From the NCBI GenBank assembly GCA_016286055.1, contig JAEERW010000002.1:136458-200457 (forward strand): 64,000 nucleotides of DNA. Direction: 5' to 3'. Of the stretch, positions 6,703-42,470 are shown piece after piece. This DNA is from Bacteroidales bacterium. Its GTDB lineage: Bacteria; Bacteroidota; Bacteroidia; Bacteroidales; UBA3824. Position 1 is the stretch's first letter. Each line of letters starts with the position of its first letter. The position numbers were made by a program, and so were the translations under genes. Under the pieces are notes generated by a model. The model was not told where the DNA came from. It did no database searches and saw only the letters and a program-made list of their open reading frames with translations.

Positions 6703-7524
6703 ATGAAAAAAAGAACGACCATATTATCATCATTACTCATGGCAGCAGCTCTTTGCTCCAACAGTTATGCCCAAACAAGCTTTACCGTTGAGCCACAAAC
6801 CGCATGCACAGGTTCGCCAGTAGGGGTTACCAACACATCTTCGGGCAGTTTCCAGTTTGCCCATTTCGACTTTGGAGACGGAACCGACACTTACGGCGAC
6901 AACCTACAACACATTTACACCTCCGCAGGTGAGTACACTATCACCATGTGGTTGCTCAACAACGATGGTACTAAGACCGCAACTATTTCGCAAAATGTGA
7001 AAATAGATGACACCCCGACAATAGAAATTGCCGACTCTAAAACCATGTCGCAGATCACAGTTACCAGCAACCAAAACGTTTCGTACGAATGGTATCTCGG
7101 CAAAAAGAAATTAGACAACACCAACAATCCCCTATTCTACTACGAAAGCGGCAACTATTCGGTAATAATAAAAAACTCAAGCGGATGCACCGCTACTGCG
7201 GAAATCAGGGTAACAGCTCAAGATGCCGAATCGGCCGACAACACAATCATCAGCGTGGCTAACAATGTGATAACGCCAGGAGTGAAAGACGGAATCAACG
7301 ATGTGCTATTTATCACCGACGTGGCCGACTACGAATATCCATGTGTTGTAAAAATTTTCGACAAACGCGGCAAAATCGTTTACACAAACAATGAATACAC
7401 CAACACAAACGGTTTTCAAGGCAACGACAACGATGGCAACGAATTGTTTGCCGGAACATACTACTACGTTATTAAAAGCCAGGGACGCAAAGGTGTCACC
7501 GGATTTGTGGACATAATCAGATAA
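6703..7524 (+). CDS. Secreted PKD-domain protein with T9SS type B (gliding-motility-type) C-terminal sorting domain
   Basis: Signal peptide (..AALCSNSYAQ) and a PKD-like motif (FDFGDGT..HIYTSAGEYTITM). The C-terminal ~90 aa fit the type B CTD pattern (NVITPGVKDGINDVLFI..IFDKRGKIVY..GTYYYVIKSQG..GFVDIIR). Confidence 0.7.
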   Translation: MKKRTTILSSLLMAAALCSNSYAQTSFTVEPQTACTGSPVGVTNTSSGSFQFAHFDFGDGTDTYGDNLQHIYTSAGEYTITMWLLNNDGTKTATISQNVKIDDTPTIEIADSKTMSQITVTSNQNVSYEWYLGKKKLDNTNNPLFYYESGNYSVIIKNSSGCTATAEIRVTAQDAESADNTIISVANNVITPGVKDGINDVLFITDVADYEYPCVVKIFDKRGKIVYTNNEYTNTNGFQGNDNDGNELFAGTYYYVIKSQGRKGVTGFVDIIR

Positions 7525-7535
7525 CTATCAGCAAG

Positions 7536-9023
7536 ATGACAAAGAGAATAATCATAGCTACGGCATTTATGGCGGCCCTATCGGCAACGGCGCAAGAGAC
7601 ATATTTCAGAGGTCTGAATTACGCCGACAGATTTTCGGTGTCGCCAGCTTTCGCAGGATTCAACGGCAACGACGAAGCGTTCGTATCGTACCGCCGCAAT
7701 ATGCTCGGTATCGAAGGCGCGCCCAAAAACCTAAAATTAGACGTCAACGGCGACATTATGAACCAAAACGCTGGATACGGAATAGACATCACAAGCGAAA
7801 AAGCTGGCAACTTCACTAACCTTGCCGCTTCGATTTCTTACGCATACCATATCCAAATCAGCGACGACATTAACCTCAGCCTCGCTGTATCTCCTACAAT
7901 TCTGCGTTCGTCGTACAATCTGGGCAAAGCCACTACTTTCGGTGCTCAAACCGACCCCGTTTTTCAAAACGAAGCAGGATTGTCGGCTACGGCATTCGAC
8001 GCAGGAGTGTCGCTAATGTTCAATTACGCAGGACTTTATGTGAGCGCCAACATGCCACGAACCATATGCGGTGATATGAAATTCAACAACGGAATATACA
8101 ACTCCGACCGTGTGTTAAACAGCGAGATATCATACGCATTGCCAGCCGGAAACTTCACCATAGAACCTATCGCCGACATTTCGTATGCATTTAAAGGCGG
8201 ATTGGACTACAAGGCTACTTTGGCTGCAAAATACAATCAAAGAGCCTGGCTTACAGTATCTTACTCTTCGCAATACTGGGTAGGCGTAGGTGCAGGATTG
8301 GCAACAGGAAGCCGTGTGGTGGTAGGATATCTCTACGAAACAGGAAACTCCACAGTAGCGAGCAACTGCTCGGGCAATCACGAAATTTATGTGGGATTCT
8401 GCATCTCTAAAAACCAGAAACGCAAAGAGCCCACAGCATTTGCCGACGACGACTGCGGAGGCAGTGCTCCTGTGATTCAAAACAACAACAATTCAGACCT
8501 CGAACGCAAGCTCAAAGACGAAATCCGCAACCGCGAAAACGAAATTAAACGCTTGGAGGATGTTATCAAGAGCTATCACAGCGGCGAAACTGGAAACGTA
8601 ACACCACACACGCCCTCCACCAACATTCCCGCCAACAACGCTCCCCAACCAGAAAACAACACGCCGAGCAGATCGTCGGGATGGCTGCCCCCTGAGCCTT
8701 TTTACAATGTGGTGTTCGCTTACGGAAACGCCAAACTATTTCCCTCGTCACATGCAGAATTAGACCACTGCATCAACACAATGAAAAAAACCGAAGGCAG
8801 AAGGGTGCTGATTATAGTATACACCGACGAATTGGGATCGGCCGATTACTGCAGAATACTATCTACACAACGTGCCGAAGCAATCAAAAAATACTTTGAG
8901 AGCAAAGGAATACCAAGCAACAACATAGAAATCGAAGGCAAAGGTCGCAGAGTGTCGGGATCAAACATCACCCCGGAACAGCGTGTTGGATTAAACCGTG
9001 TAGAATACTGCTGGAGCAAATAA
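7536..9023 (+). CDS. PorP/SprF-family T9SS outer-membrane protein fused to a C-terminal OmpA-like peptidoglycan-binding domain
   Basis: The N-terminal ~300 aa fit the PorP/SprF pattern (FSVSPAFAGFNG..VSYRRNMLGIEGAPKN). An Asn/Pro-rich coiled linker follows. The C-terminus carries an OmpA_C motif (VVFAYGNAKL..LIIVYTDELGSADYCRILSTQRAEAIKKYF). The gap to the upstream type B CTD gene is 11 nt. Confidence 0.75.
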   Translation: MTKRIIIATAFMAALSATAQETYFRGLNYADRFSVSPAFAGFNGNDEAFVSYRRNMLGIEGAPKNLKLDVNGDIMNQNAGYGIDITSEKAGNFTNLAASISYAYHIQISDDINLSLAVSPTILRSSYNLGKATTFGAQTDPVFQNEAGLSATAFDAGVSLMFNYAGLYVSANMPRTICGDMKFNNGIYNSDRVLNSEISYALPAGNFTIEPIADISYAFKGGLDYKATLAAKYNQRAWLTVSYSSQYWVGVGAGLATGSRVVVGYLYETGNSTVASNCSGNHEIYVGFCISKNQKRKEPTAFADDDCGGSAPVIQNNNNSDLERKLKDEIRNRENEIKRLEDVIKSYHSGETGNVTPHTPSTNIPANNAPQPENNTPSRSSGWLPPEPFYNVVFAYGNAKLFPSSHAELDHCINTMKKTEGRRVLIIVYTDELGSADYCRILSTQRAEAIKKYFESKGIPSNNIEIEGKGRRVSGSNITPEQRVGLNRVEYCWSK

Positions 9024-9031
9024 CAAACACT

Positions 9032-9529
9032 ATGAGCAAGATTGTAAAAATATTAACCATAATGATATGCGCACTGTCGATATCACACGCCGGAGCACAG
9101 AGCCTGAGCGGAAGCCGTACCGTGGCTGCTGCCAACACAGTGAAAACCGCCCGACACACATGCTCGTATGTGGTAGCTGGAGGAGGACTCACCACTTTCG
9201 CCACTTTGAAAGCTAAAAAAGAAAACACCCAGCAAAACAACGACCCGAAATCAACCGTCGACAAAAACGTGGTTGAAACCACCCTCTACCCTAACCCATT
9301 TACCGATTTTGCCACAGTAAAATTTGGAATCAAACCCGATGCCCCTGAGCCTAAAATCACCATCACCGACGGCTCTGGTCGCTCTATCTATCCAAAATTC
9401 TCTATTACCGAACAAACAGAAAAGTATATGACGGTAATTATTACTACAACAAACTTAAAACAAGGACGTTACATTATAAGGATAATATCTGGCGACAAAA
9501 TAGCCGCCATAAAAGCAATAAAATTATAA
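9032..9529 (+). CDS. Small secreted protein consisting mostly of a T9SS type A C-terminal sorting domain
   Basis: 165 aa. It has a signal peptide (..SISHAGAQ) and a C-terminal type A CTD pattern (TLYPNPFTDFATVKF..ITITDGSGRSIY..LKQGRYIIRIISGDK..). The gap to the upstream gene is 8 nt. Confidence 0.6.
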   Translation: MSKIVKILTIMICALSISHAGAQSLSGSRTVAAANTVKTARHTCSYVVAGGGLTTFATLKAKKENTQQNNDPKSTVDKNVVETTLYPNPFTDFATVKFGIKPDAPEPKITITDGSGRSIYPKFSITEQTEKYMTVIITTTNLKQGRYIIRIISGDKIAAIKAIKL

Positions 9530-9541
9530 AACCGAACTACC

Positions 9542-11296
9542 ATGAGCAAGAACAGCATAACCAAAAGCATTATAACCGCGGCAATAATATCGCTTGCCAC
9601 AGGCGTATCTGCACAGCAGTTGCCAAACTCGTTTAACTATCAGGCGGTAGTTAACGCCGAAGACGGTTCGCCCGTTGCCGCTAAAAAAATAACCGTGGAA
9701 GTATCAATTTTACAAGGCACCGACTGCGACGAAAGCAACTCTTGCCCTGTACTGTGGCAAGAACTCCACTACCCCACCACTAGCGACTTCGGAATGTTTT
9801 CGATAGAGATAGGCTCGTCTTCCGCCACCAACACTTACGGCGGCTCATGTGCTCAATATAGCGACATCGACTGGCTCGACGTGTCGCAAGGATATTATTA
9901 CCTAAAAGTTAGAGCCGATTTTGGGGAATCAGAAAATCTCAACAGCCTTAGCAATTTAGGCACCACCAAATTTTCTGCAGTGCCATACTCTCTGGTGGCT
10001 CAAAAAGCTGATTTTGCTACAAATGCTACAAATGCTACTAACGCCACCAATGCCACAAACGCTATTAATGCTAACACTGCAACCTCAGCCACCACTGCCG
10101 CCACCGCTGACGAAATCAACACAGATGCAAACGGCAAGATACCAAACAAACTAGCGCAGCTCGCTGATGTAGACCTTACTGGAATACAAGCAAATCAAAT
10201 ATTAGTATACGATGGCGCAAAATGGACACCAAAAAACGCCACATCTTCAACTCAAGGTGCTTCGGTATTAAACGAACTCGGTGACGTAACAATTAGTTCT
10301 CCCGCAAATGGACAAGTACTCACCTACAACTCATCATCAAGCAAATGGGAAAACAAAGCCGCCACATCTTCCATCACCAAACTTCAACAACTTACAGGCG
10401 ACGTCAACATAGGCTCCACGATTAACGAAGGCGATGTTCTTACATACACCAGCGGAAAATGGACCAACTCTGTTCCACCAAGTTGGGAAAAAGCAGGAAC
10501 CAACAACATCAAATACACCAAAGGCAATGTTGGCATTGGTAGTGTCAGCAATCCCGACAAATTGCTTGTGGTTGCATCAGCTGATGGATCAACCAAATTA
10601 GATGGCGAATCTATTGTAATGTCAGAAGGCAGAATTGCAATGAGTAGCGGTTCGGCAGAAGGAGCGGGTTCTATCGCTAGCGGTTCCGGATGTAGGGCGG
10701 TGGGCTCAAACTCCATAGCTGTGGGAGAAAGCAACTTAGCATCACAAGAGCACGCCGTACTATTTGGCAAAGCATTGACAAGTTCAAGCTCAAACCAATT
10801 AGTAGTAGGAATTGCTAACGATCCATCAGATGTTGGGTTATTTGTTGTTGGAGGAGGAGACGCAAACGCTTCAGTAAGAAAAAACGCTTTTTCTGTTTCA
10901 AAAACTGGCAATATCATCTACGCGGGAACCATAAATGGATCCTCCGACCGCCGCTTAAAAACCAACATCACACCGCTCGAAAAATCGCTCGACAAAGTGA
11001 TGAAACTCAACGGTGTAACATTCAACTGGGACCAGTCGGTGAGTCACAATGTAAACGCTTCCACCACACTGCAATACGGATTTATAGCTCAAGAGCTTGA
11101 AAATATTATTCCCGAACTAGTAAGCGACGGACCCGACGGATACAAGACAGTCAATTACATTGGCGTAATTCCCGTGCTTACTCAGGCCATCCAAGAGCAA
11201 CAGCAAGAGATTGAGCAACTTAAAGACGAAAACAAAAAACTCAACGAAACAGTTGAAGCTCTCTTGAAACGTGTTGAGGCTTTAGAAAAGAAATAA
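9542..11296 (+). CDS. Tail-fibre-like surface protein with C-terminal peptidase S74 intramolecular-chaperone domain and terminal coiled coil
   Basis: 584 aa with a signal peptide and an ATN tripeptide repeat. The S74/endosialidase-chaperone pattern starts at GSSDRRLKTNITPLE..LNGVTFNW..YGFIAQELENIIPELV..YKTVNYIGVIPVLTQAIQEQ. A heptad tail follows (EIEQLKDENKKLNETVEALLKRVEALEKK). I recognised no T9SS CTD. Confidence 0.8.
   Translation: MSKNSITKSIITAAIISLATGVSAQQLPNSFNYQAVVNAEDGSPVAAKKITVEVSILQGTDCDESNSCPVLWQELHYPTTSDFGMFSIEIGSSSATNTYGGSCAQYSDIDWLDVSQGYYYLKVRADFGESENLNSLSNLGTTKFSAVPYSLVAQKADFATNATNATNATNATNAINANTATSATTAATADEINTDANGKIPNKLAQLADVDLTGIQANQILVYDGAKWTPKNATSSTQGASVLNELGDVTISSPANGQVLTYNSSSSKWENKAATSSITKLQQLTGDVNIGSTINEGDVLTYTSGKWTNSVPPSWEKAGTNNIKYTKGNVGIGSVSNPDKLLVVASADGSTKLDGESIVMSEGRIAMSSGSAEGAGSIASGSGCRAVGSNSIAVGESNLASQEHAVLFGKALTSSSSNQLVVGIANDPSDVGLFVVGGGDANASVRKNAFSVSKTGNIIYAGTINGSSDRRLKTNITPLEKSLDKVMKLNGVTFNWDQSVSHNVNASTTLQYGFIAQELENIIPELVSDGPDGYKTVNYIGVIPVLTQAIQEQQQEIEQLKDENKKLNETVEALLKRVEALEKK
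10016..10108 (+). repeat. Imperfect 9-nt tandem repeat encoding (Ala-Thr/Ile/Asn-Asn/Thr)n inside the tail-fibre-like gene
   Basis: The sequence reads gctacaaat gctacaaat gctactaac gccaccaat gccacaaac gctattaat gctaacact gcaacctca gccaccact gccgccacc. Synonymous variation occurs between units. Confidence 0.85.
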
Positions 11297-27544: not shown

Positions 27545-27620
27545 TATTTATTTTGCTTGCGTATGGTTGACAAAAATATGAATAAATATTGGATATCCCA
27601 CAAATGTATTTTGAAATTAA

Positions 27621-27668
27621 CAAAAAAATAAAAATCCGAACGCTGAACGGGGTTCAACATCCGGATTT
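27621..27668 (-). terminator. Probable rho-independent terminator of the GH8 gene
   Basis: Imperfect hairpin aaatccgaacgcTGAACggggTTCAacatccggattt. On the minus strand it is followed by a U-run (plus-strand aaaaaaa at 27622-27628). Confidence 0.5.
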
Positions 27669-27707
27669 ATATGATAATGATGGCAGGAGCGTACACGAGG
27701 TACGCCC

Positions 27708-29405
27708 CTACAATGCCAATTTGAATGATTTGCCGTTGATGATTACCACAAATACTCCTGATTTGGCGAGGGAGATTTCTTCGCGTGATGATTTTGTTGT
27801 AGATGTTGCTATTGTGCGGCCTTGGAGGTCGATGATTTTGTATTTGGTGTCGGGAGCAGAGGCAATAAAAATGGTGCGGTTTGACGACCAGACTTTTACG
27901 CTTGGAGCGTTGTCGACTGAAGATACCGGAGTGGGCGGATTTTCAGGGTCGGGGTCGGGATCTGGATCTGGATCTGGGTCTGGGTCAGGATCGGGTGTGG
28001 AGTTTGATTTAGGTTTAATTGTTACACGATACAGCTGACCTTCTTCATAAGAATAAATGGTAGTTTCTTCGGTGTAGGTAACGCCGTTGTAGACGTTGGC
28101 GGTGATGTTCTTAGTCTTGATATCTGGCTTCGGTTTCCAAATCTTGAAACTGCCGCAGAGGTGGAGCATTGCCATATAGTGCACTATTCCGTCGTAGTAG
28201 CGGTTAGACCCCATTATTGGCTTTGCATCCCAGGCCATTTTTAATACCTTAGTGACCAACTCATTATAATCGGGGTCGCCGAGCAAAGCATACGTTGCCA
28301 CAGCGTTTGCGCCAGCTTGACCGATGGTAAACGAGCCTTCAGGTTCAGTGCCGTCCCAGTTGAAGCGAGAATGCTTGTAATTATCATTATCAAAGAAGTC
28401 GGTAATGAGTTTTGCTATTTTTGTCTGACGTTCAGCATCAACGCCAAACAAATAATAGTCCATACCATAATTCATTGGACAGCGAATGGCATCATAAGCA
28501 TACCGTATTGAATTACTGCTATATGCATAATGCGGTGTGCCATCAAAGTTGCTGTAATCGGAGAATAAGCCAGACTTCGAATTGGCGGAACGGTAAATGT
28601 GGTCGCGCGTAGCCGCAGTTGCCTTTTTCCACTTGTCATTGTTGGTTTTTGACCAGCGGCCAAACAAATCAACAAATGCAGGGAGGCTGTAAGACGGGTC
28701 GCTCCATGAGTTGTTGCCCTCAGTAGGCTGAAATGTTATGACATAAGATTGTTCGTTGAACAAAGAAGCATTTGAGCCCTTCCAGCATGATTTCAGTATA
28801 GCCTGTGCATCATTCATATAATCAGCGTTGTTCCATCGGTTAGCTGCAAAAAGCAACGACATCATATAGTAAACTTCGGCATCGGGAGCATTTCCTTTGT
28901 CTGATACGGTGCCATCACGGTTTGCATGCCAAGAGAAGTAACCATTGCCACCCATTTCAGGGTCGTGCCACAGATGAAGTTTCGACCATTGCCATAGTTT
29001 GTCGAACTCGTCCTTGTGGCCAGTCTGTACGGCTATCATCATTCCATACGCCATACCTTCGGAACGGACGTCGTTGTTGACGATATCAACTATATTTGCG
29101 CCATAGCGGTCTTCGTAGTAGATAGTCCTATCAACAACACCACCGAAATAGTGATTCCAAAGTTGATCAAGTTTGGCTTGAATTTCTTCGTCGGTCTTGC
29201 CCAGGTAGGTTTTAAACGGGCTCTCGTATTTGCCAGTGTAATATGCACCAGAATAGTTAGTTTCCTCGGTAGTGGGCCCGAAGTATGCTCCGTCTGGGTC
29301 AAAGAAATCTGAGTGGTTTATCGGTATCTGTGCTGACAAATGCGCTGGGGAAAATGCACATAAGCACACCACCGCCATAATTGCGTAAAAGTTTGTTTTT
29401 TTCAT
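27708..29405 (-). CDS. Glycoside hydrolase family 8 enzyme with Pro-Asp linker and probable T9SS C-terminal sorting domain
   Basis: Signal peptide plus GH8 motifs (VRSEGMAYGMMIAVQ, APDAEVYYMMSLLFAANRW). A (PD)8 linker follows. The final ~65 aa are CTD-like (KYKIIDLQGRTIA..GVFVVIINGKSFKLAL). Confidence 0.8.
   Translation of the reverse strand: MKKTNFYAIMAVVCLCAFSPAHLSAQIPINHSDFFDPDGAYFGPTTEETNYSGAYYTGKYESPFKTYLGKTDEEIQAKLDQLWNHYFGGVVDRTIYYEDRYGANIVDIVNNDVRSEGMAYGMMIAVQTGHKDEFDKLWQWSKLHLWHDPEMGGNGYFSWHANRDGTVSDKGNAPDAEVYYMMSLLFAANRWNNADYMNDAQAILKSCWKGSNASLFNEQSYVITFQPTEGNNSWSDPSYSLPAFVDLFGRWSKTNNDKWKKATAATRDHIYRSANSKSGLFSDYSNFDGTPHYAYSSNSIRYAYDAIRCPMNYGMDYYLFGVDAERQTKIAKLITDFFDNDNYKHSRFNWDGTEPEGSFTIGQAGANAVATYALLGDPDYNELVTKVLKMAWDAKPIMGSNRYYDGIVHYMAMLHLCGSFKIWKPKPDIKTKNITANVYNGVTYTEETTIYSYEEGQLYRVTIKPKSNSTPDPDPDPDPDPDPDPDPENPPTPVSSVDNAPSVKVWSSNRTIFIASAPDTKYKIIDLQGRTIATSTTKSSREEISLAKSGVFVVIINGKSFKLAL
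27946..27996 (-). repeat. Hexanucleotide microsatellite encoding the (Pro-Asp)n linker
   Basis: gggtcggggtcgggatctggatctggatctgggtctgggtcaggatcgggt has a 6-nt period with wobble variation. Confidence 0.9.
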
Positions 29406-34001: not shown

Positions 34002-34454
34002 TTATAGTTTATCTTCATATGATGGATACATTTTCATATTTTGCATCGTAGGAGTAGGCGGATAAGGGATGGAGTATTCAAGCTTACCAAAATCTGCGCC
34101 AGTCATACTATATCGAAGCAAAATATTATAAGTTTCAAGTGTATATTTAAGACCATATTTACTAAGAGTGTCTTTATTTATAATAAAATATTGAATAGTA
34201 TCTTTTAATTTCTCACATTCATAATCCGATTCAAAGACAATAGCTGACTTGTCGTTTGGTATAGACTGCGCAGCTTGTTTTTCCTCAACAATTGCAATTG
34301 TGTCTGAATTGTAAAAAGCAAACACATAAATAGTATCTCCTGTATTATTAGATAATTGTACGATATAATCGCCTCCACATACAGAATTCCAATAGTCATT
34401 GCAAGATACCAAAAGCAACATGATTACACAAGAAATAGAGAATTTGAATTTCAT
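34002..34454 (-). CDS. Small lipoprotein, paralog C of a three-member family (candidate immunity protein)
   Basis: Lipobox LLLVSC. The C-terminus (LLRYSMTGADFGKLEYSIPYPPTPTMQNMKMYPSYEDKL) is shared with 35188-35670. Confidence 0.6.
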   Translation of the reverse strand: MKFKFSISCVIMLLLVSCNDYWNSVCGGDYIVQLSNNTGDTIYVFAFYNSDTIAIVEEKQAAQSIPNDKSAIVFESDYECEKLKDTIQYFIINKDTLSKYGLKYTLETYNILLRYSMTGADFGKLEYSIPYPPTPTMQNMKMYPSYEDKL

Positions 34455-34483
34455 ATTACTAAATAATATACAATGCGTATCAT

Positions 34484-35158
34484 TTATTTTACAGTATTAA
34501 TCATATTTTCGTTTTTGGGAATAATCTCATCTGTCTTTCGAAAATGCGGTGAATTATTCTTAATTCTATAAATATTGGGAACTGGCACATAATTAAGCTC
34601 AGACAATTGATGTTCAGAAAAATTGCGAAAGAAATCAGATATTTTGATAGATTTTTTATCAAAATAATAAAGAGTATTATTTTTAACATACAATAATCCT
34701 GGAATTAGATAATTCGAGAATGAACGGCAATACAAAATTGCATCAGGATTACAAGCTAATATACGTTTTAATATTTTTTTATTACATTCAAAATATCTTA
34801 TATCAGACAATCCCCAATCAAAACTTGCTATATACATTAATTTGCTTTTGTCATCAACATAAGCCATAGAGTAAACAATGCAACTGTCTACGACTATTCT
34901 GTTATAAATACTAACATCGTCCAAACTATCTTTTAAATTCACAAAAAGAATTGATATTAAAGGATTTGCATTGTATTTTGACCTGTCGAACCGCTCATTA
35001 TGAGTGATTATAGCAGATTCGTCAATCAACGAATCGATTGCCGGAATATAGGCTCGCTTTACTTCATCAGAATTAAATCTCAAAATAGTCTCCAATGATT
35101 GACCATAAACCGAGCAACCTAATAGTGTTAAAAGTATAGCTATCAAGATAGGTTTCAT
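34484..35158 (-). CDS. Secreted or lipoprotein of unknown function
   Basis: 224 aa with signal/lipobox LTLLGC. The ORF is AT-rich and I recognised no motif. Confidence 0.5.
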   Translation of the reverse strand: MKPILIAILLTLLGCSVYGQSLETILRFNSDEVKRAYIPAIDSLIDESAIITHNERFDRSKYNANPLISILFVNLKDSLDDVSIYNRIVVDSCIVYSMAYVDDKSKLMYIASFDWGLSDIRYFECNKKILKRILACNPDAILYCRSFSNYLIPGLLYVKNNTLYYFDKKSIKISDFFRNFSEHQLSELNYVPVPNIYRIKNNSPHFRKTDEIIPKNENMINTVK

Positions 35159-35187
35159 ATTATAATTGACATTGACATAAACAAGAC

Positions 35188-35670
35188 CTATTCCGTTTCC
35201 TTAATAATCTCCTCATACGGCGGATACATTTTCATATCCTTCATAGCAGCGGAAGGGGGATAGGGAACCGTGAATTGGAGATTAATAATATCATCACCAG
35301 ACAAATCATAACGAGTTAACACTTTATAGTTTTTACAAATGTCTAACCACGAGCAAATATAATAAATTTCTTCGTCCAAAATGAAAACTGAAAATGTGTC
35401 CGTTGAAGATATAGCGTTTGCTTTCTTTTGATTCCAATATTTAAAAATATAAGAGTTGCCAGGTTTTAATACCCTCGTAGACTTTTCATAGATAGAATAG
35501 TCTTCATTTATTATAGTGTCGTTCTCTCTGAGGTCAAAAAAAGAATAATCTTGGATTAAAATTATATTTTTATCAGACATATTTTTAATTGATGCATTAT
35601 TGGAATCAAAATATTCTTTTTTGCATCCCGAACATAATAATAGGACAAACAATACAATCAATAACTTCAT
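35188..35670 (-). CDS. Small lipoprotein, paralog B (candidate immunity protein)
   Basis: Lipobox LLLCSGC. The C-terminus is YICSWLDICKNYKVLTRYDLSGDDIINLQFTVPYPPSAAMKDMKMYPPYEE. Confidence 0.6.
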   Translation of the reverse strand: MKLLIVLFVLLLCSGCKKEYFDSNNASIKNMSDKNIILIQDYSFFDLRENDTIINEDYSIYEKSTRVLKPGNSYIFKYWNQKKANAISSTDTFSVFILDEEIYYICSWLDICKNYKVLTRYDLSGDDIINLQFTVPYPPSAAMKDMKMYPPYEEIIKETE

Positions 35671-35681
35671 AGCTTAATGTG

Positions 35682-36131
35682 TTAAAATTTTATTATACGC
35701 ATTTTATTCATTTCACTTGTGGGTGGAAACTCCACAACTAACGGATAGTTGTGGAGTTCCTTAAGTATGAGTATATCTTCTTTTGAAAGTACATATATAT
35801 ACAAAAACATTTGTTTATCAGTTATATCAGACCAAGAATAATTCAGACATGTTTTTTTATCAATTATGAATAATGCAATACTATCATTTTCCCATATTTG
35901 ATCTAATTCAATCAGGCTGTTTTTTGTCTCGTTAGGTTTCAATGTGCATCTAAAAGTATTCTCAGAGAAGATATAAGGCATTACAGTGTCTGCATAATGC
36001 AATTTGGTTATAATGTGCACGGTGTGTTCCGATGTATTTTTGAAATACAATGTTTCAGGTTCTTCGTCCATATATAAATGGCAACCCGAAAAAACAAGAA
36101 TCGATAAAAACAGAAAAATTTTAAAATCCAT
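35682..36131 (-). CDS. Small lipoprotein, divergent paralog A, overlapping the Rhs stop by 11 nt (candidate cognate immunity protein)
   Basis: I chose the start at ATG 36131 (MDFKIFLFLSILVFSGC). The C-terminus (LNYSWSDITDKQMFLYIYVLSKEDILILKELHNYPLVVEFPPTSEMNKMRIIKF) aligns with paralogs B and C. Confidence 0.55.
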   Translation of the reverse strand: MDFKIFLFLSILVFSGCHLYMDEEPETLYFKNTSEHTVHIITKLHYADTVMPYIFSENTFRCTLKPNETKNSLIELDQIWENDSIALFIIDKKTCLNYSWSDITDKQMFLYIYVLSKEDILILKELHNYPLVVEFPPTSEMNKMRIIKF

Positions 36132-39100
36132 AAGTCGGGTATGTTGAATAAATTGACCAATAATTGCCGAAATAATCTCGACTGTATGCACTTGCCTCTC
36201 GTTCAAACCAACGTTCACGATGTGATCCATATTTTGGATTTTTAGCATCTAACAAACTTGGAATTCCAATATTGAACAAATACGCAAAACCATAGTGCCT
36301 GCCTTGAATTGTATGACCATACTCGTGCATAAATAAACCGTCGTGAGATGATTTTAAATATGATTCGAAATCTGTTTTAACATAATCTTTAATATTTATG
36401 TTAATAAAATTTCCAATTGTAATGCCATCATTTTTATCGGAATACTCGTCAACACAAAATGTAGCACCATCATAATAGTCCACACGGTCAACTTTGCCGA
36501 TGATATTCCGTATATGTGAATACATATTTCCTAACCCAGTTTGAAGAGATTCCCATGAGTATCTTGAGTTCCAATGCCAGAAGTTTTTAGCTCGAAACAT
36601 ACCCTTATCAATTTGAAATGCATTGCAAATTTTTTTATCGTAGTTTTTCGATGGTATAGAAAGTGCAAACAATGTGCCTTGAAATGGCATAAGCCCTGAT
36701 GCCGTAATGGTAGTGAACAATCCTGTTGCAGCAGTAGCGGTAGCACAGACTGTAACGCAAAACGATACAGGGTCAAGTAGAAACGCGCCGAGAATCCATG
36801 GTTTCCATTTTTCCCCGCTCGGGTCGGTATACTTGAGCGGATTATTCAAGCAATAAGAGTAACGATTGAAGTTCTGAGAGTTCTCCCAATCCTGTACAAA
36901 TGGGTCAGGGGCGAGAAAACGACCAACAAGAGGGTCGTACATTCTGCCGCCCATATCAATAATATCGAACGACGGATAATGCTGATGCACACCGCAGTAG
37001 CCTCGGGTGAACGCGGTAGTGCCTGTGGTTATGGTGCGGTTGCCAAAGGCATCGTAAGATGCCTCAAATGTCGGAGTGGCTTCTTGGTACAAAGTGGTGA
37101 TGCTGCCGAGGTGGTCGGTGAAGACCGTCTCTAACTTCTTGCCACCCAAGGGGTCAATAACGTACACGCCTACTAAACCGTCTGGCGAGTTTATGTAATG
37201 TGTTTTTTGATATATGCCGTAGCCGCCAAGTTCTTCGTAATTAGGAAGAAAGTACTGCGTAATCTCCACACCGAGTACGTTCCGTACCGATTTACGGCGG
37301 ATGTGGTCGGCGTCGTATTTGAACGAAATGCTTGTTTCGGATTCGTCGCTGTACTGAACAGTAATATACTTGGTTTTGTTAAAAGGTGTATAATCAATCT
37401 CTTGCAGAGGATTGATTATCAAAGTGTCGGTGTTGTCTACCGACTCCAAGGCGTGCGGACGTTTGCGGAAATACTCATAATTTCCCAAGCCAGTTTTAAA
37501 CAAGATGTTTCCGTTTTCTGAATAGTCAATATCGGTAACATCATGTCCATTGGTAATTTTTATCAGACGGTCGGCTGGGTCGTATTCGAATGATTCGGGT
37601 TCGGGAAACATCCCGCTCCGGCTCATCAGGTTGCCAGTCTTGGTGTCAAATTTATATGTCATTGTTTTCAACATCGCATCTTCGTACATCATTGTTGTGG
37701 AGACTGGGAAGCCGTATTTGTCGAACGATTGTGTTTTAATGTATTTTCCGTTGATTTCGGCAGAGCGTTCAAAGAGGCTCGAAGATGTGAGTTTCCACAC
37801 GGACATGGCATCCAACTGTATTTCGGTAAGATTGCCTAAATCGTCGTATGTGTAATATTCCGTTGTGCCATCGGGGAACGATTTTGATTCTAAAAGTCCA
37901 TCCTTGTTGTACGCAAAATGGTAGACATATTCGCGTGCTCCGATAGTGTAAGTCTCAGATTTTACGCGGTTTAGATTGTCATATTCGTATTTGGTGGCGA
38001 TATCTCCAAATTGTTTCTTTGTAAGTTTTCCATAGTCATCGTATATATATAAGGTGTTCTCGTCGCCGCTGACACTTTCTGTCAATTGACCGTTTTGATA
38101 AACATTTTCGGTGATGTTGCCTTCCGCGTCGGTCTGTTTTAAAATGTTGCCCCAAACATCGTATTCATATTTAGATACACCTGCGTCAGGGTCGGACAAT
38201 AGGATACGGTTGCCAACTTCGTCGTACTCCAACCTATATTCTGCGCCGGCGGCGTTGATTGCCACAGGCTTGGAGTCAGAATTGTAAGTGTATGCAATTG
38301 TTGCGATGCCGTCGTCGATTGAAAGCAAGTTACCGAATACGTCGTATGTCTTCAAGGTCTTCCTGCCGTCGGTTTCGGTTGTCACGGTGTTTTTGGTGTA
38401 GGTGTATTTTGTAACCGCGCCGTTTGTTCCTGTATGCTCAATGATACGGTTCTGATTGTCGTACACATAACTTTCGTTAAATTCGGTGTCGCCGTAGAGC
38501 GTTTTAGTTTTTATTATGTTTGAAAACTTGTCGTAAGTGTTATAAACCTTTATTTCTACACCGCCTTCACCAACGGTTTCGGTCAGGGTCTTACGTCCGA
38601 GTATGTCGTACCATTGTTTCTGCCACGGAGCGGCAGTTTGCTGAGAAAGAATGAAATAAAACTGTTCTTTGCTTTCGCCCCATCCCTTTTCGGTGGTTGT
38701 GATTGTGCCGTCGGGATATTGTGTTTTTATCAGATTACCCCAATTGTCGTATTTGTATGTGGTTATAAGCGGATTGTTTTGATTTGATATGTCAGTTTCG
38801 GTGGTTAGTCTGCCTAAATCATTGTAGCCGTATTTGATTACGCGATTTTGATTGTTGTCGGTTTTAGTTACGAGTTTTTGTTTTTCGTAGGAGCAATCGG
38901 TTGTAAATTTTTCCGCATTGTCGCCGTAAATATCTGTGTGTATGACGTTTCCATATTCATCGTATGTATATTCTGTTGATACTTGCTTTAATGTGCCGTA
39001 ATTGTCAATTTGTTTTGTTAATGTGCCGGTGATGGCATCATATTCAAAGTGTTTTTGAGTTACAAAACCTTTTGGGTCGTCAGGTGCTTTTTGGATATAG

Positions 39101-41844
39101 GTTGAAAGATGCGGCTGCCACATTCCGCCAGCCATCACGTAGTCGCCATAATATTGCAGTTTGTAATATCCATCGGGATAATGGGTTTCTGTATTTTCTA
39201 AATATCCGTGTTCGGTGTTGTATGTGTTTTGAGTAACTACTACATCACCGTATATGTCTGTATTTTTGATTTTTGACGGATATGTAAAAAAGTTTTTGCC
39301 ACCCAAATCGGTAATGCTATATTCGGTTTCGGTTGTGTTAACAAGCGTATCGTGTCTAATTGTTTGAGTGATTTTTACAGGAGTATAATAATCTGTATTC
39401 CACGAGTTTACCTCAGTTGTAGATATTTCGCCAGTATATTGGTTTTCATAAACTATTTTGTTGAAGCCGAGAAGACCTTTACCTTGTACATTAGCGGTAA
39501 GGTTATAATATTTATAATTTTTGATAATATTGTCAGTAATTCCGTTGATTTCTTCCGAAGAACTTACCACTGCCAACGGCGCAGCAACATCAATCAACGG
39601 GTAGGTCTGATTTTTACCTTTTTGGTAGAAGTTTTTGTTGGTGAGAAAAGTATAGTTGAACGTCGTGGCAGAGAAACAATCTTGTATCAAATTTATTTTA
39701 TTACAGAATGCTTTGTAATTAGAATTGTAATATATATGCCATTTTGGATTATCCTCATTATTCCAATTAAAAAGACAATTGTTACCATAGTTTATAAGTT
39801 CGCGAATGCCGTCACCATTGAAATCGCCAACGGCAAAGTTTGAGTTATAGGCATCGCTTTCGTTGTGAGATGTAGTTTTCTTCCATTCTGTTAGTTTTTT
39901 GCCGTCGGATTTCAACCATAAGGTTTGAGTATAGTCATATACACCCCACGGACTTGACCACATATCATCTTCTTTGTGATACTGTCCACGGGTGGATACA
40001 ATGTCGGATTTTCCGTCCAAGTCGAAATCCAAAATCTGCAAGTCAAACCTGCCGTTGTCGTGACCAGTAAAACCTCGGTCGTAAAAATCTGTTGTAATGG
40101 CGATTGTCTGTTCGAAACCGCCATGTCCTTTATTCATTAAAAAATACCAGTTCTTGTCGTCAGTTTCGGTGTAGACAAAATCTAGCAACCCATCACCGTT
40201 GAAGTCGCCTGAACGGATGATGTAGTATCCATTTATGATGCCTTCAATGTCGGTTTTATTGCTATCGGGGAAATAACCGTCGCCGTCGTTGTATAAAATA
40301 GTGTAGCCCTTTTTGCTAAATATTATGACATCAACAGTGTTGTCGCCGTTGAAGTCGGCGGCAAACATATCCTTAGGCTCTTGCGAAAGATAAAACTCAA
40401 AATCGGAATCGCCGTCTGCCGAAACTAATTTTGCGTTATACCGACCATACTCGTTCTGCTTTTTTTCTACGTAAAAAATTTGCGTTTTGCCATTGCCCTT
40501 GAAATCAGCAAAAGCAAGCGCAGGCATTTCGCTGCAATGCAAGTTGTACCAACGGAAATCAAATATTTGTGCATTTTCGTAGAACCGAAAACCAATTTGT
40601 TCCCAATGACCTTTGGCAACATTTAAACAAGGTATAATTAATTCGTTAGAGCCATTCCCGTTGAAGTCGCCAAAAACGAAACTATTACCTTTTTTAATAT
40701 CGTCCAAAGGTGTTTCAGATTCAATAAAATCTTCTCCCCTGTATGCAAAAACAAATCTGTCGTCTTTTATTAACGTTTCATAAAAAATCACCTTGTTGAT
40801 AAAGTATGTTATATTACCTACCTTTTGTGGAGAAACTAAGATTATGTCGTCCAAACCGTCGGCGGTAATGTCCCCTGTTATTACCATCTGTTCGTAAAAG
40901 TCAACCGGATAGGATATGTCGCTTGCTGAAAAATTAAAAATATCAGGTTCAATATCATCTAAGACATTATGGATGCCTATCCAATTAAATTTGACAGGAG
41001 GTAAGGATTCGCCTTCCGTGTTGGTCTTAGTGATTGCCGACAACCGCGAATAGCCGTCGTTGTCAACGTATGTTAAGTGATATGTATAAATATCTTTGTT
41101 GTAACACTTTACTAATATATCTTTTATACGCTCTTTTAATTCTTGTGGGTGTCCGAAAAAATTACCTTTTACAATATCAGAACGCTGTTCATATTCAAAT
41201 TTGATTTCGCACGTATAACTAAAATCATTGTTAGTATAAACGATACTTTTGGGCATAGTTACAAAAACAGACTGATGGTAGTCGTATAATATAAAGTTGC
41301 CAAAGTTATCTTCAACCTTAGCCAAGTTCCATACCGCAGGTTTTTGCCAAATAATGTCGATATTAGACGACATACCATAACCGTAATAAAAGATTTTTCC
41401 ATCCTTTTTCATTTTGAAATACCTTTCATCAGGGTAGTAGGTGATTTCGGCTGTAAGGTCTCCTTCCAATGTATATTTGTTAGTAGGAACTTTGATAAGC
41501 CGCTTGCCATCCAATAAAAAATCTTCGCCGTGGTTAAAATCAATGCCGGAAGCCATTCCGTCAAAATAAATAGTCTTATTAGTTCGTGTTATTGAAGAAA
41601 AACCGTCTAACATAAAACCAACACCCAAAATGCCGTTTCCACTAATACTGTTATAATTGAGTGATACAGATGGAAACAATCCGTTAGTGCCTTCGGGAAT
41701 CTCAATAGGCAGCGAAAAAACAGCATTGCCCAATTCGCCAACGGTTACCGTGCTGGACAACTTACCCACAGAATATTTGTTATTCTGAGCTATTGCAGAG
41801 ATACTTATCAGTGCGATTAATATGCTTAACAAAGCCTTCCTCAT
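36121..41844 (-). CDS. Secreted SpvB-like / FG-GAP / RHS-repeat protein with Rhs core and a C-terminal hydrophobic + HExxH (zincin-like) toxin module
   Basis: 1907 aa with signal peptide (..SISAIAQ). The SpvB-like block is FSLPIEIPEGTNGLFPSVSLNYNSISGNGILGVGF. Seven FG-GAP/VCBS-like motifs are present (e.g. GDFNGDGLLDFV, LDFDLDGKSDIV, GDFNGDGIRELI), along with many YD repeats (YTYDEYGNVI, YKYDNWGNLI, YEYDVWGNIL...). The Rhs core end is GRMYDPLVGRFLAPDPF..NRYSYCLNNPLKYTDPSGE at nt 36811-36825. A 229-aa C-terminal module follows, with HEYGH at nt 36313-36327. Confidence 0.85.
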   Translation of the reverse strand: MRKALLSILIALISISAIAQNNKYSVGKLSSTVTVGELGNAVFSLPIEIPEGTNGLFPSVSLNYNSISGNGILGVGFMLDGFSSITRTNKTIYFDGMASGIDFNHGEDFLLDGKRLIKVPTNKYTLEGDLTAEITYYPDERYFKMKKDGKIFYYGYGMSSNIDIIWQKPAVWNLAKVEDNFGNFILYDYHQSVFVTMPKSIVYTNNDFSYTCEIKFEYEQRSDIVKGNFFGHPQELKERIKDILVKCYNKDIYTYHLTYVDNDGYSRLSAITKTNTEGESLPPVKFNWIGIHNVLDDIEPDIFNFSASDISYPVDFYEQMVITGDITADGLDDIILVSPQKVGNITYFINKVIFYETLIKDDRFVFAYRGEDFIESETPLDDIKKGNSFVFGDFNGNGSNELIIPCLNVAKGHWEQIGFRFYENAQIFDFRWYNLHCSEMPALAFADFKGNGKTQIFYVEKKQNEYGRYNAKLVSADGDSDFEFYLSQEPKDMFAADFNGDNTVDVIIFSKKGYTILYNDGDGYFPDSNKTDIEGIINGYYIIRSGDFNGDGLLDFVYTETDDKNWYFLMNKGHGGFEQTIAITTDFYDRGFTGHDNGRFDLQILDFDLDGKSDIVSTRGQYHKEDDMWSSPWGVYDYTQTLWLKSDGKKLTEWKKTTSHNESDAYNSNFAVGDFNGDGIRELINYGNNCLFNWNNEDNPKWHIYYNSNYKAFCNKINLIQDCFSATTFNYTFLTNKNFYQKGKNQTYPLIDVAAPLAVVSSSEEINGITDNIIKNYKYYNLTANVQGKGLLGFNKIVYENQYTGEISTTEVNSWNTDYYTPVKITQTIRHDTLVNTTETEYSITDLGGKNFFTYPSKIKNTDIYGDVVVTQNTYNTEHGYLENTETHYPDGYYKLQYYGDYVMAGGMWQPHLSTYIQKAPDDPKGFVTQKHFEYDAITGTLTKQIDNYGTLKQVSTEYTYDEYGNVIHTDIYGDNAEKFTTDCSYEKQKLVTKTDNNQNRVIKYGYNDLGRLTTETDISNQNNPLITTYKYDNWGNLIKTQYPDGTITTTEKGWGESKEQFYFILSQQTAAPWQKQWYDILGRKTLTETVGEGGVEIKVYNTYDKFSNIIKTKTLYGDTEFNESYVYDNQNRIIEHTGTNGAVTKYTYTKNTVTTETDGRKTLKTYDVFGNLLSIDDGIATIAYTYNSDSKPVAINAAGAEYRLEYDEVGNRILLSDPDAGVSKYEYDVWGNILKQTDAEGNITENVYQNGQLTESVSGDENTLYIYDDYGKLTKKQFGDIATKYEYDNLNRVKSETYTIGAREYVYHFAYNKDGLLESKSFPDGTTEYYTYDDLGNLTEIQLDAMSVWKLTSSSLFERSAEINGKYIKTQSFDKYGFPVSTTMMYEDAMLKTMTYKFDTKTGNLMSRSGMFPEPESFEYDPADRLIKITNGHDVTDIDYSENGNILFKTGLGNYEYFRKRPHALESVDNTDTLIINPLQEIDYTPFNKTKYITVQYSDESETSISFKYDADHIRRKSVRNVLGVEITQYFLPNYEELGGYGIYQKTHYINSPDGLVGVYVIDPLGGKKLETVFTDHLGSITTLYQEATPTFEASYDAFGNRTITTGTTAFTRGYCGVHQHYPSFDIIDMGGRMYDPLVGRFLAPDPFVQDWENSQNFNRYSYCLNNPLKYTDPSGEKWKPWILGAFLLDPVSFCVTVCATATAATGLFTTITASGLMPFQGTLFALSIPSKNYDKKICNAFQIDKGMFRAKNFWHWNSRYSWESLQTGLGNMYSHIRNIIGKVDRVDYYDGATFCVDEYSDKNDGITIGNFININIKDYVKTDFESYLKSSHDGLFMHEYGHTIQGRHYGFAYLFNIGIPSLLDAKNPKYGSHRERWFEREASAYSRDYFGNYWSIYSTYPTYGF

Positions 41845-42236
41845 TCTTTCAAAATTTTATAAGTTTTGTCAGAAATGTTTAACAAATATATTCCGCTTGG
41901 CAGATTTGTCAAATCTATATTATTACTCTCCATCAAATCGTTTATTGTCAAGACAATACGTCCGAACAAATCAATAATTACAGCCTTATGAACTTCTTGT
42001 TGATAAAGTTCGATTTGCAAAAAATCTTTAACCGGATTTGGGTAAATTTTTACAAACTCATCCTGAATTACAGACTCTTGAATGTCTGCAATAGAAGTTT
42101 GAAGTTCTGGCTTGGGCAGGTCAACAAAACGTAACACCCTTGCCCCGTTGTCGTTATAATCGAATGTAACTTTTTGGGCATAAGATATTTTGCACAAAAA
42201 CAACACTACGAGTATTAGTGTAGCAGTATATTTCAT
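41841..42236 (-). CDS. Mini-protein: signal peptide + one YD-repeat-like strand + T9SS type A C-terminal sorting domain
   Basis: Start set at MKYTATLILVVLFLCKISYAQ. The mature N-terminus KVTFDYNDNGARVLRF resembles the YD repeats of the downstream Rhs gene. The CTD pattern is KIYPNPVKDFLQIEL..IIDLFGRIV..LPSGIYLLNISDK. The stop overlaps the Rhs ATG (ATGA). Confidence 0.65.
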   Translation of the reverse strand: MKYTATLILVVLFLCKISYAQKVTFDYNDNGARVLRFVDLPKPELQTSIADIQESVIQDEFVKIYPNPVKDFLQIELYQQEVHKAVIIDLFGRIVLTINDLMESNNIDLTNLPSGIYLLNISDKTYKILKE

Positions 42237-42252
42237 AGTTAGTAGTTTTTTG

Positions 42253-42260
42253 CAAAAATA
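42253..42260 (-). promoter_or_regulatory. -7 promoter box TATTTTTG upstream of the mini-protein/Rhs operon
   Basis: The reverse complement of caaaaata matches TAnnTTTG. It lies 17 nt upstream of ATG 42236. Confidence 0.45.
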
Positions 42261-42449
42261 GATAAATAATGAACGTAGCAACGCTACTCTTTGTTAAAAA
42301 ACGTTAACAATTAATACCTTACATATTTTATCCCAGCCTCACAAACTTAACACTCAGATCCATTTAGAAGATGGACACATCGTCGTATCAATGTAACACT
42401 TTAATCAAAAATAAACAACCTCTTAACGTGTAAAAATCAAAAAAAATTC

Positions 42450-42457
42450 TACTTTTG
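42450..42457 (+). promoter_or_regulatory. -7 promoter box TACTTTTG upstream of uvrA
   Basis: Matches TAnnTTTG and lies 14 nt upstream of ATG 42471. Confidence 0.5.
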
Positions 42458-42470
42458 CAAAGTTTTATCA

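Follow-up and report, generated by a model that had tools for sequence, protein, structure and literature searches.

In a 64,000-nt stretch of contig JAEERW010000002.1 from a Bacteroidales bacterium (the window, whose positions are used below for the two genes under study), a small gene of the minus strand runs directly into a large gene encoding an Rhs polymorphic toxin. The small gene, hereafter the mini-gene, encodes a mini-protein composed of a signal peptide, a YD hairpin, a linker and a type A C-terminal domain (CTD) of type IX secretion systems (T9SS), and this architecture is real and conserved. The pair is part of a widespread, essentially uncharacterised module of two, often three, genes associated with Rhs toxins in Bacteroidota. 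The mini-protein probably supplies in trans the export and surface-anchoring signal that the Rhs toxin cannot carry, and we lean, by a modest degree, towards a view in which the Rhs toxin has two parts, the mini-protein being its detachable subunit for T9SS sorting and anchoring. The features of the pair and of its immediate surroundings are as follows, with lengths in amino acids (aa) or nucleotides (nt).

42253..42260, minus strand: candidate Bacteroidetes -7 promoter box TATTTTTG, a weak candidate read from the sequence, 16 nt upstream of the mini-gene ATG

41841..42236, minus strand: mini-gene for the YD-hairpin/CTD protein of 131 aa, with its ATG at 42236 and its stop codon at 41841-43

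42177..42236, minus strand: Sec signal peptide, residues 1-20 (MKYTATLILVVLFLCKISYA, followed by Q), predicted from the sequence, the alignment of homologues and an AlphaFold2 (AF2) helix at residues 2-15

42123..42176, minus strand: single YD-type β-hairpin at the mature N-terminus, residues 21-38 (QKVTFDYNDNGARVLRFV), from conservation, AF2 and the in-register match to canonical YD mini-proteins

42048..42122, minus strand: flexible linker, residues 39-63, acidic and polar, with a predicted local distance difference test score (pLDDT) <50 at residues 46-52 and a length that varies in the family

41844..42047, minus strand: type A T9SS CTD, residues 64-131, from PF18962 and TIGR04183 matches and Foldseek

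36121..41844, minus strand: Rhs polymorphic toxin gene, 1907 aa, with signal peptide, SpvB, FG-GAP, RHS shell, Rhs core and toxin

36124-36810, minus strand: C-terminal toxin region, Rhs residues 1679-1907 (229 aa), a hydrophobic stretch followed by MHEYGH (HExxH-like)

34002..36131, minus strand: four small open reading frames (ORFs) downstream of the Rhs gene (35682-36131, 35188-35670, 34484-35158 and 34002-34454), from gene calls and the identical loci L001-L003

The initial annotation had described a 131-aa protein with a signal peptide, about 40 further residues and a type A CTD, and this description is borne out, the predicted cleavage site (between SYA and QK) being separated from the CTD by 43 residues. 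The 14 close homologues are all about 131 aa long and all come from Bacteroidales metagenome assemblies, and the signal-peptide pattern is kept across the family. A lipoprotein reading based on residue C15 was ruled out, as this cysteine is not conserved and homologues carry G or H at its position, leaving a type I signal. The CTD is matched by PF18962 (Por_Secre_tail) over residues 64-128 (E 4.9e-14, 52.8 bits for a cut-off of 27) and by TIGR04183 over residues 64-130 of 131 (46.8 bits for a cut-off of 23). In the AF2 model, built on a 24-sequence alignment and with a mean pLDDT of 83, the signal-peptide helix and the disordered linker segment listed above flank a hairpin with strands at 23-27 and 33-38 (pLDDT 84-88), together spanning residues 23-38 (QKVTFDYNDNGARVLRF), and the CTD is predicted to fold at 62-130 into a seven-strand immunoglobulin-like β-sandwich (pLDDT 87-94). 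The top Protein Data Bank matches of this CTD model in Foldseek are T9SS CTDs (8qb1, 8glk_D, 8glj_D, 8gl6_D and PorZ 5m11), led by the mirolase CTD 8qb1 and the CTDs of NucA, FspA and RemA in T9SS complexes, with target-normalised template modelling (TM) scores of 0.67-0.77. The mini-protein thus combines the features of a type A CTD substrate: a Sec signal peptide, a CTD above cut-off at the extreme C-terminus and the predicted CTD fold. Its stop codon (TGA) shares the sequence ATGA with the Rhs start, a 4-nt overlap at 41841-41844 that had been read correctly from the outset. The candidate -7 box, for which the Bacteroidetes consensus is TAnnTTTG, lies within the 234-nt spacer (42237-42470) separating the mini-gene from the divergent uvrA gene. 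Two 180-aa variants of the window mini-protein, P0005 and P0006, carry a 49-residue internal duplication, which takes in the linker together with the beginning of the CTD.

The N-terminal sequence of the mini-protein (FDYNDNGARVLRF) had been likened by the initial annotation to the YD repeats of the downstream Rhs protein, with the peptides YGYNDLGRLTTET and FAYNKDGLLESKS cited for comparison, both of which are found in the Rhs translation. This likeness is not significant for the window copy taken alone, as profile and shuffle results given further below indicate, but it is established indirectly, through canonical members of the family that match PF05593 and TIGR01643. No other part of the mini-protein is as conserved as the hairpin: A20-Y27, G31, R33 and R36 (AQKVTFDY..G.R..R) do not vary among members of the window subfamily with identities as low as 43%, a conservation exceeding that of the CTD. 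At two distant loci with SpvB-Rhs genes, small genes of identical layout encode a textbook YD repeat straight after the signal peptide (QQIEYVYDDAGNRTARN; TTITYEYDDAGNRISRR), and a profile made from these distant mini-proteins gathered 24 further such proteins of 123-187 aa. Among 24 diverse members of the family, PF05593 matches nine (best E 0.0026) and TIGR01643 eleven (best E 5.8e-4), these single-repeat matches being judged by E-value. When a 24-residue profile of the mature N-terminus of the window subfamily was compared with 3233 ORFs of unrelated loci, the top 22 matches were all canonical mini-proteins, aligning in register on the YxYDxAGNRxxR hairpin that follows their signal peptide. 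The [YF]-x-YD-x-[AS]-GNR of the family agrees with the YD hairpin consensus Y-x-Y-D-x-x-G-[NR]-[RL], and the window variant F-D-Y-N-D-N-G-A-R stands in register with it. Because of the invariance within the subfamily, and because its N-terminal profile retrieves canonical relatives that themselves match the RHS_repeat and YD_repeat models, we read the window hairpin as YD-type, an indirect identification through these relatives that appears sufficient. Elsewhere in the window, the one ORF matched by a profile of Rhs-shell YD units, at 27604-28038 on the plus strand, was rejected as a shadow ORF within a minus-strand gene.

The family to which the mini-protein belongs is large. An exhaustive profile search over 1.84 billion representatives, clustered at 50% identity, returned at least 256 representatives at E≤1e-30, and the YD motif follows the signal peptide in 138 of the 140 short proteins found among the best 150 profile matches. 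The hairpin consensus is AQ-x-[IV]-x-[YF]-x-Y-D-x-[AS]-G-N-R-[ITV]-x-R-x-[IV], with the YD motif beginning 3-6 residues past the cleavage site throughout the family. The linker between hairpin and CTD measures 20-63 aa (median 25), is acidic and is enriched in E, S, D, T and P, and the CTD is retained in 24/24 diverse members scanned as well as in the representatives matching the full-length profile. A metagenome scan added at least 396 relatives from termite gut, human gut, rumen and other samples, and the named sources of the family comprise Bacteroidales, Dysgonamonadaceae and a Flavobacterium. The window copy is a divergent member of the family. A genome-collection scan seeded with the Rhs N-terminus gave no relatives, and one seeded with the window subfamily gave only three rumen species known from metagenome-assembled genomes, together with the CTD-only matches L018 and L019, which were dismissed as unrelated large CTD proteins. 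Homologues retrieved with residues 1-700 of the Rhs protein were for the most part FG-GAP proteins no longer than 1200 aa, with neither long Rhs proteins nor Porphyromonas gingivalis among them. Decayed copies occur as well: at L017:8001-8306 the mini-gene, 88 nt away from its Rhs gene, breaks off within the CTD (101 aa), and at L021:~480-906 it bears two frameshifts in poly-A runs, an intact version existing elsewhere as P0091.

The partner gene, by its domain content, is an Rhs polymorphic toxin of TcB/TcC-like type, with repeats, core and variable toxin as well as SpvB and propeller. A signal peptide (residues 1-19) is followed by SpvB (PF03534, 32.4 bits for a cut-off of 22), an FG-GAP propeller (FG-GAP_3, 61.4 bits), the RHS repeats of the YD shell (PF05593, E 1.9e-34) and the Rhs core (TIGR03696, 55.3 bits for a cut-off of 32.5) at residues 1597-1677, with PLKYTDPSGE, an instance of the PxxxxDPxGE motif, at 1669-1678. 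The N-terminus resembles that of YenB and TcdB1 (E 9e-4), two TcB proteins whose structures are known, on which basis the protein can be read as a TcB-TcC-like fusion with a Sec signal. Scans with Pfam and NCBIfam found no CTD in it, so that a toxin with a signal peptide and without a sorting domain, as originally proposed, is confirmed by the domain scans; nor did they give any match for the toxin region. A CTD is likewise absent from every Rhs partner examined, and nearly all of the complete Rhs N-termini listed start with a signal-peptide-like segment.

The linkage between mini-gene and Rhs gene is far above chance. In the window subfamily the 4-nt overlap is preserved in three different neighbourhoods (uvrA; OmpA/purD-type genes; tilS), and distant mini-genes stand 4 nt upstream of SpvB-Rhs genes in a Flavobacterium and a Dysgonamonadaceae genome and beside such genes in other Bacteroidales lineages. 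Across the family, the linkage extends over many genomic neighbourhoods and two gene orders. Of 80 metagenome loci, 57 were evaluable, having ≥900 nt of sequence downstream, and in 47 of them an SpvB-Rhs gene starts at -22 to +467 nt relative to the end of the mini-gene, with gaps mostly of 3-30 nt. Counted as non-redundant lineages at 70% identity (39 evaluable), an Rhs gene is found near the mini-gene in 35/39: immediately downstream in 30, downstream at 0.7-3 kb in two and upstream within 3 kb in three. Sources of these lineages are the rumen, the guts of humans and termites, and a Flavobacterium. The pairing is thus recurrent in Bacteroidota.

Within this pair, the mini-protein follows one part of its partner. 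Identities of mini-protein and shell to those of the window are, across the window family, 100/96, 63/79, 46/59 and 45/56%. At locus L004 the mini-protein is 100% and the shell 96% identical while the toxin is only 36% identical, and at L014 the toxin is unrelated to that of the window with the shell kept. On these identities, the mini-protein co-varies with the Rhs shell and not with the toxin; since the shell is tracked while the toxin swaps, it would belong to the conserved delivery part of the locus and not to its toxin-immunity part, and for the same reason an immunity-protein reading was discarded.

Taken together, the conserved architecture, the signal-peptide Rhs partner devoid of CTD, the linkage and the tracking of the shell are what a delivery subunit acting in trans predicts, and they support in part this reading, which the initial annotation had put forward and which is the best explanation at hand. 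We infer hairpin-shell binding, co-export and anchoring to anionic lipopolysaccharide (LPS) in the following manner. The Sec pathway would take the mini-protein and the Rhs protein separately into the periplasm, where the YD hairpin would join the TcB/TcC-like YD shell by β-sheet complementation, with the linker serving as a tether. The T9SS would then recognise the type A CTD of the mini-protein, and the complex might cross the outer membrane as one T9SS substrate whose signal lies on a separate chain. The PorU sortase would cut off the CTD and the new C-terminus would be attached to anionic LPS, leaving the Rhs cocoon hanging from the cell or vesicle surface by a flexible tether of 25-60 residues; the product after PorU processing would be a short LPS-linked peptide that holds the cocoon at the surface. 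Such a split design would be needed because the T9SS requires its signal at the C-terminus, a place that in the Rhs protein is taken by the cleaved, shell-enclosed toxin.

Several observations weigh against this proposal. Neither PF05593 nor TIGR01643 matches the window mini-protein at E≤1, and with a crude profile from 143 strict Rhs-shell YD units, 380 of 2000 shuffles score as high as the window hairpin or higher. The profile of the hairpin gives weak matches (≤11 bits) at no fixed position in the partner Rhs shells, so that no docking site can be named, and the mature Rhs N-terminus aligns with that of YenB, the first hairpin of the shell not being obviously missing. No Rhs gene was seen near the mini-gene in four of the 39 lineages, three of which have <700 nt of upstream sequence, and translational coupling does not extend to the whole family, since at least three lineages have the mini-gene placed downstream of the Rhs and immunity genes. 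No report of hitch-hiking through the T9SS was found in the literature. Size is a further difficulty. The lumen of SprA is about 70 Å wide. For an Rhs cocoon of three turns the dimensions are 86 x 65 Å, and those of the Tc type are larger still (PMC8765631); since the four-turn TcB/TcC-type cocoon with its propeller exceeds these dimensions, passage of a folded complex is doubtful. Separately, a Rosetta-stone fusion, with the hairpin placed behind an Rhs signal peptide, was found in none of 50 distinct N-termini of SpvB ORFs.

The size of the cocoon relative to the translocon bears directly on the main rival explanation, which we regard as unlikely, in which the T9SS exports the mini-protein alone as an LPS-linked peg and the hairpin captures the Rhs cocoon afterwards, at the surface or on vesicles. 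The Rhs protein would then leave by vesiculation, lysis or an unknown translocator, and the T9SS would set its location and not its exit from the periplasm. The architecture and linkage data fit this scheme equally well, the long flexible linker suits a tether, and small CTD proteins such as PorA and Fjoh_0547 readily reach the surface (PMC7712824). However, the loci show no evident other route across the outer membrane for a 200-kDa periplasmic protein, and the tight operon coupling, with its 4-nt overlap and gaps of 3-30 nt, is better suited to assembly before export.

More improbable is that the mini-protein acts as a folding cap or nucleator, its hairpin pairing transiently with the edge of the nascent β-spiral so as to template vectorial folding or block aggregation, after which the CTD would remove the hairpin. 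In favour of such a factor, the mature protein begins with a hairpin of a distinct YD subtype under strong conservation, and it co-varies with the shell, yet a chaperone needs neither a T9SS sorting domain nor a long tether, and the CTD is kept in all the diverse members scanned and in the full-length-profile representatives. An absence of any physical coupling, the mini-protein being an independent small T9SS surface peptide (a remnant of Rhs/CTD fission, or a signalling or adhesion peptide) that travels with Rhs loci, would account for the four lineages with no visible Rhs gene and for the truncated (L017) and frameshifted (L021) copies, but is just as improbable, as a remnant would neither retain hairpin, linker and CTD over at least 256 clusters at 50% identity nor stay adjacent in 35/39 lineages with two gene orders, and as it is the shell, rather than the neighbourhood, that the mini-protein tracks. 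Both of these explanations are made less likely than export or anchoring in trans by the universal retention of the CTD and by the conservation and linkage statistics.

Delivery of the Rhs protein by a separate sorting subunit requires a T9SS in the host, and its use is suggested by three further genes of the window, which encode PorP/SprF, a protein with a type B CTD and another one with a type A CTD. Of the core genes, porK/L/M/N and sov/sprA do not occur within the 64 kb. The T9SS-related genes form a group of four adjacent genes on the plus strand at 6703-11296.

6703-7524, plus strand: protein with PKD and CHU_C (type B CTD)

7536-9023, plus strand: PorP/SprF-OmpA protein

9032-9529, plus strand: second type A CTD mini-protein, 165 aa, no YD motif

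9542-11296, plus strand: fibre protein without CTD, 584 aa, with NATNAT repeats and a Peptidase_S74 chaperone domain, starting 12 nt after the 165-aa gene

The 165-aa CTD gene and the S74 fibre gene make up another pair in which a mini-CTD gene precedes a secreted protein devoid of CTD, and this hints that the hitch-hiking on mini-proteins could extend beyond Rhs toxins. As a tentative generalisation, which we consider less likely than not, the T9SS may export and anchor at the surface CTD-less proteins that travel on dedicated mini-proteins made of a cargo-specific docking element, a tether and a CTD, the YD-hairpin family being the adaptor for Rhs.

A third component often accompanies the Rhs module. 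This fibre-like protein combines YadA-head-like repeats with a GIGTTxPxxKLxV motif and a signal peptide, and is encoded by a gene that ends 3-22 nt ahead of the YD-CTD mini-gene or, in the alternative order, just ahead of the Rhs gene.

L020:214-918, L023:8910-9995 and L024:1495-2493, and 27 (+6) of loci L026-L105: fibre-like third component

Pfam gave no match in the three fibre-like proteins tested, and at five loci (L046, L033, L091, L103 and L063) the S74 region of the fibre protein encoded in the window is matched by the upstream ORF. A fibre-like third gene is missing from the Rhs module of the window itself. In a set of human gut contigs (L075, L076, L079-L081, L085, L087, L088, L094 and L098), large Rhs genes occur in tandem, the upstream one close to the window Rhs (shell E about 1e-190) and the downstream one preceded by a canonical YD-CTD mini-gene; L099 carries two mini-genes. 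Assembly GCA_016295295.1, which also holds the window sequence, has a second module on a separate contig (L102, JAEEGK010021138.1), where a canonical mini-protein of 159 aa (YSYDAAGNR) is followed 12 nt on by an Rhs gene of 1976 aa. The Rhs gene of L010-L013, four contigs that stem from different samples (L010:10393-16261), is broken identically after about residue 83 into an 88-aa SpvB ORF and an 1859-aa ORF, for which a fixed frameshift or pseudogene, or recoding, may be considered. The four small ORFs downstream of the window Rhs gene have no family matches and are, from their position alone, candidate immunity or orphan-module genes.

Signal-peptide SpvB-Rhs toxins are numerous in Bacteroidota and possess neither the PAAR/VgrG features of type VI secretion systems (T6SS) nor the TcA component of toxin complex (Tc) systems. 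If our proposal holds, a separately encoded CTD subunit would give them a secretion route and explain why the signal is split from the toxin, and, as far as the literature found shows, would represent the first recruitment of a T9SS substrate in trans. The succession of signal peptide, YxYDxAGNRxxR, linker and CTD would then serve as a genomic marker for toxin loci. On the tentative generalisation given above, the YD-hairpin/CTD family, which is plentiful in metagenomes of human gut, termite gut and rumen, would define a phylum-wide Rhs weapon that depends on the T9SS and on contact, is frequently joined by a third component resembling a tail fibre, and occurs in Bacteroidota of human gut, mouth and rumen.

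Elements of this association have been noticed by others. Moradali et al. (2019) described PGN_1817 as a “T9SS-cargo protein” whose gene, in P. gingivalis 381, is upstream of the largest Rhs gene, and suggested a mechanistic link (PMC6775972), and Yukitake et al. (2020) listed it as a 145-aa CTD protein, the smallest of the strain, of undetermined function (PMC7712824). Steele and Moran (2021) observed that most SpvB/TcdB-type rhs genes of Apibacter adjoin type A sorting-domain genes (PMC8125069), and Zhang et al. (2012) placed proteins with signal peptide, SpvB, propeller and RHS under a “TcdB/TcaC export pathway” (PMC3482391). A connection between the T9SS and Rhs toxins has therefore been suspected independently from the same adjacency, which supports the proposal made here (PMC6775972, PMC8125069). 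We found no paper describing the YD hairpin, defining the mini-protein family or giving a mechanism; the initial claim that no T9SS-dependent Rhs route with a separate CTD adaptor had been described thus stands for the mechanism, but not for the adjacency and the suspected link, which had been noted (PMC6775972, PMC8125069). A 423-aa CTD protein of P. gingivalis, PGN_1767/PG1798, is annotated as “RHS repeat protein” (PMC7712824), and by this listing CTD proteins with YD repeats in cis also exist.

The closest parallels to the window pair are PGN_1817/PGN_1818 of P. gingivalis (ATCC 33277/381) and the Apibacter loci, where a small type A CTD gene likewise stands beside a signal-peptide Rhs gene of SpvB/TcdB type. 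The papers on these organisms report adjacency only, the YD hairpin, the definition of the family and its distribution and mechanism being the result or the proposal of the present analysis. From its size, CTD and position, PGN_1817 probably belongs to the mini-protein family, which makes the idea directly testable in the genetically tractable P. gingivalis. The partner Rhs protein shares with the TcB-TcC cocoon of Tc (ABC) toxins (YenB/YenC, TcdB/TccC) the SpvB N-terminus, the propeller, the RHS shell, the autoproteolytic core and the enclosed toxin. There, two polypeptides jointly form a single continuous YD shell, which sets a precedent for YD elements provided in trans. Unlike in Tc toxins, there is here no TcA translocator, the Rhs protein has a Sec signal peptide, and the element in trans is a single hairpin bearing a T9SS signal and not half a shell. 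The accessories of T6SS Rhs proteins (PAAR/VgrG loading, EagR/DUF1795) offer a functional analogy, in that a small upstream gene likewise couples a toxin container to a secretion machine. They are cytoplasmic and act on N-terminal PAAR or transmembrane regions, whereas the mini-protein is proposed to act in the periplasm through a YD strand and a CTD; there is no relation of sequence or fold, and neither DUF1795 nor PAAR was found by Pfam and NCBIfam in the mini-protein or the Rhs protein. The TANFOR toxins of Bacteroidetes are likewise polymorphic toxins without CTD, in neighbourhoods rich in T9SS CTD genes that suggest a non-canonical dependence on the T9SS (PMC7073777), but they are built on a scaffold other than SpvB-RHS and their neighbours are large SprB-repeat CTD proteins instead of a YD-hairpin mini-protein. 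In its general principle, the proposed export would resemble Tat (twin-arginine translocation) hitch-hiking and peroxisomal piggyback import, in which a signal-less cargo is exported with a signal-bearing partner by a different machinery (reviewed in PMC9251779).

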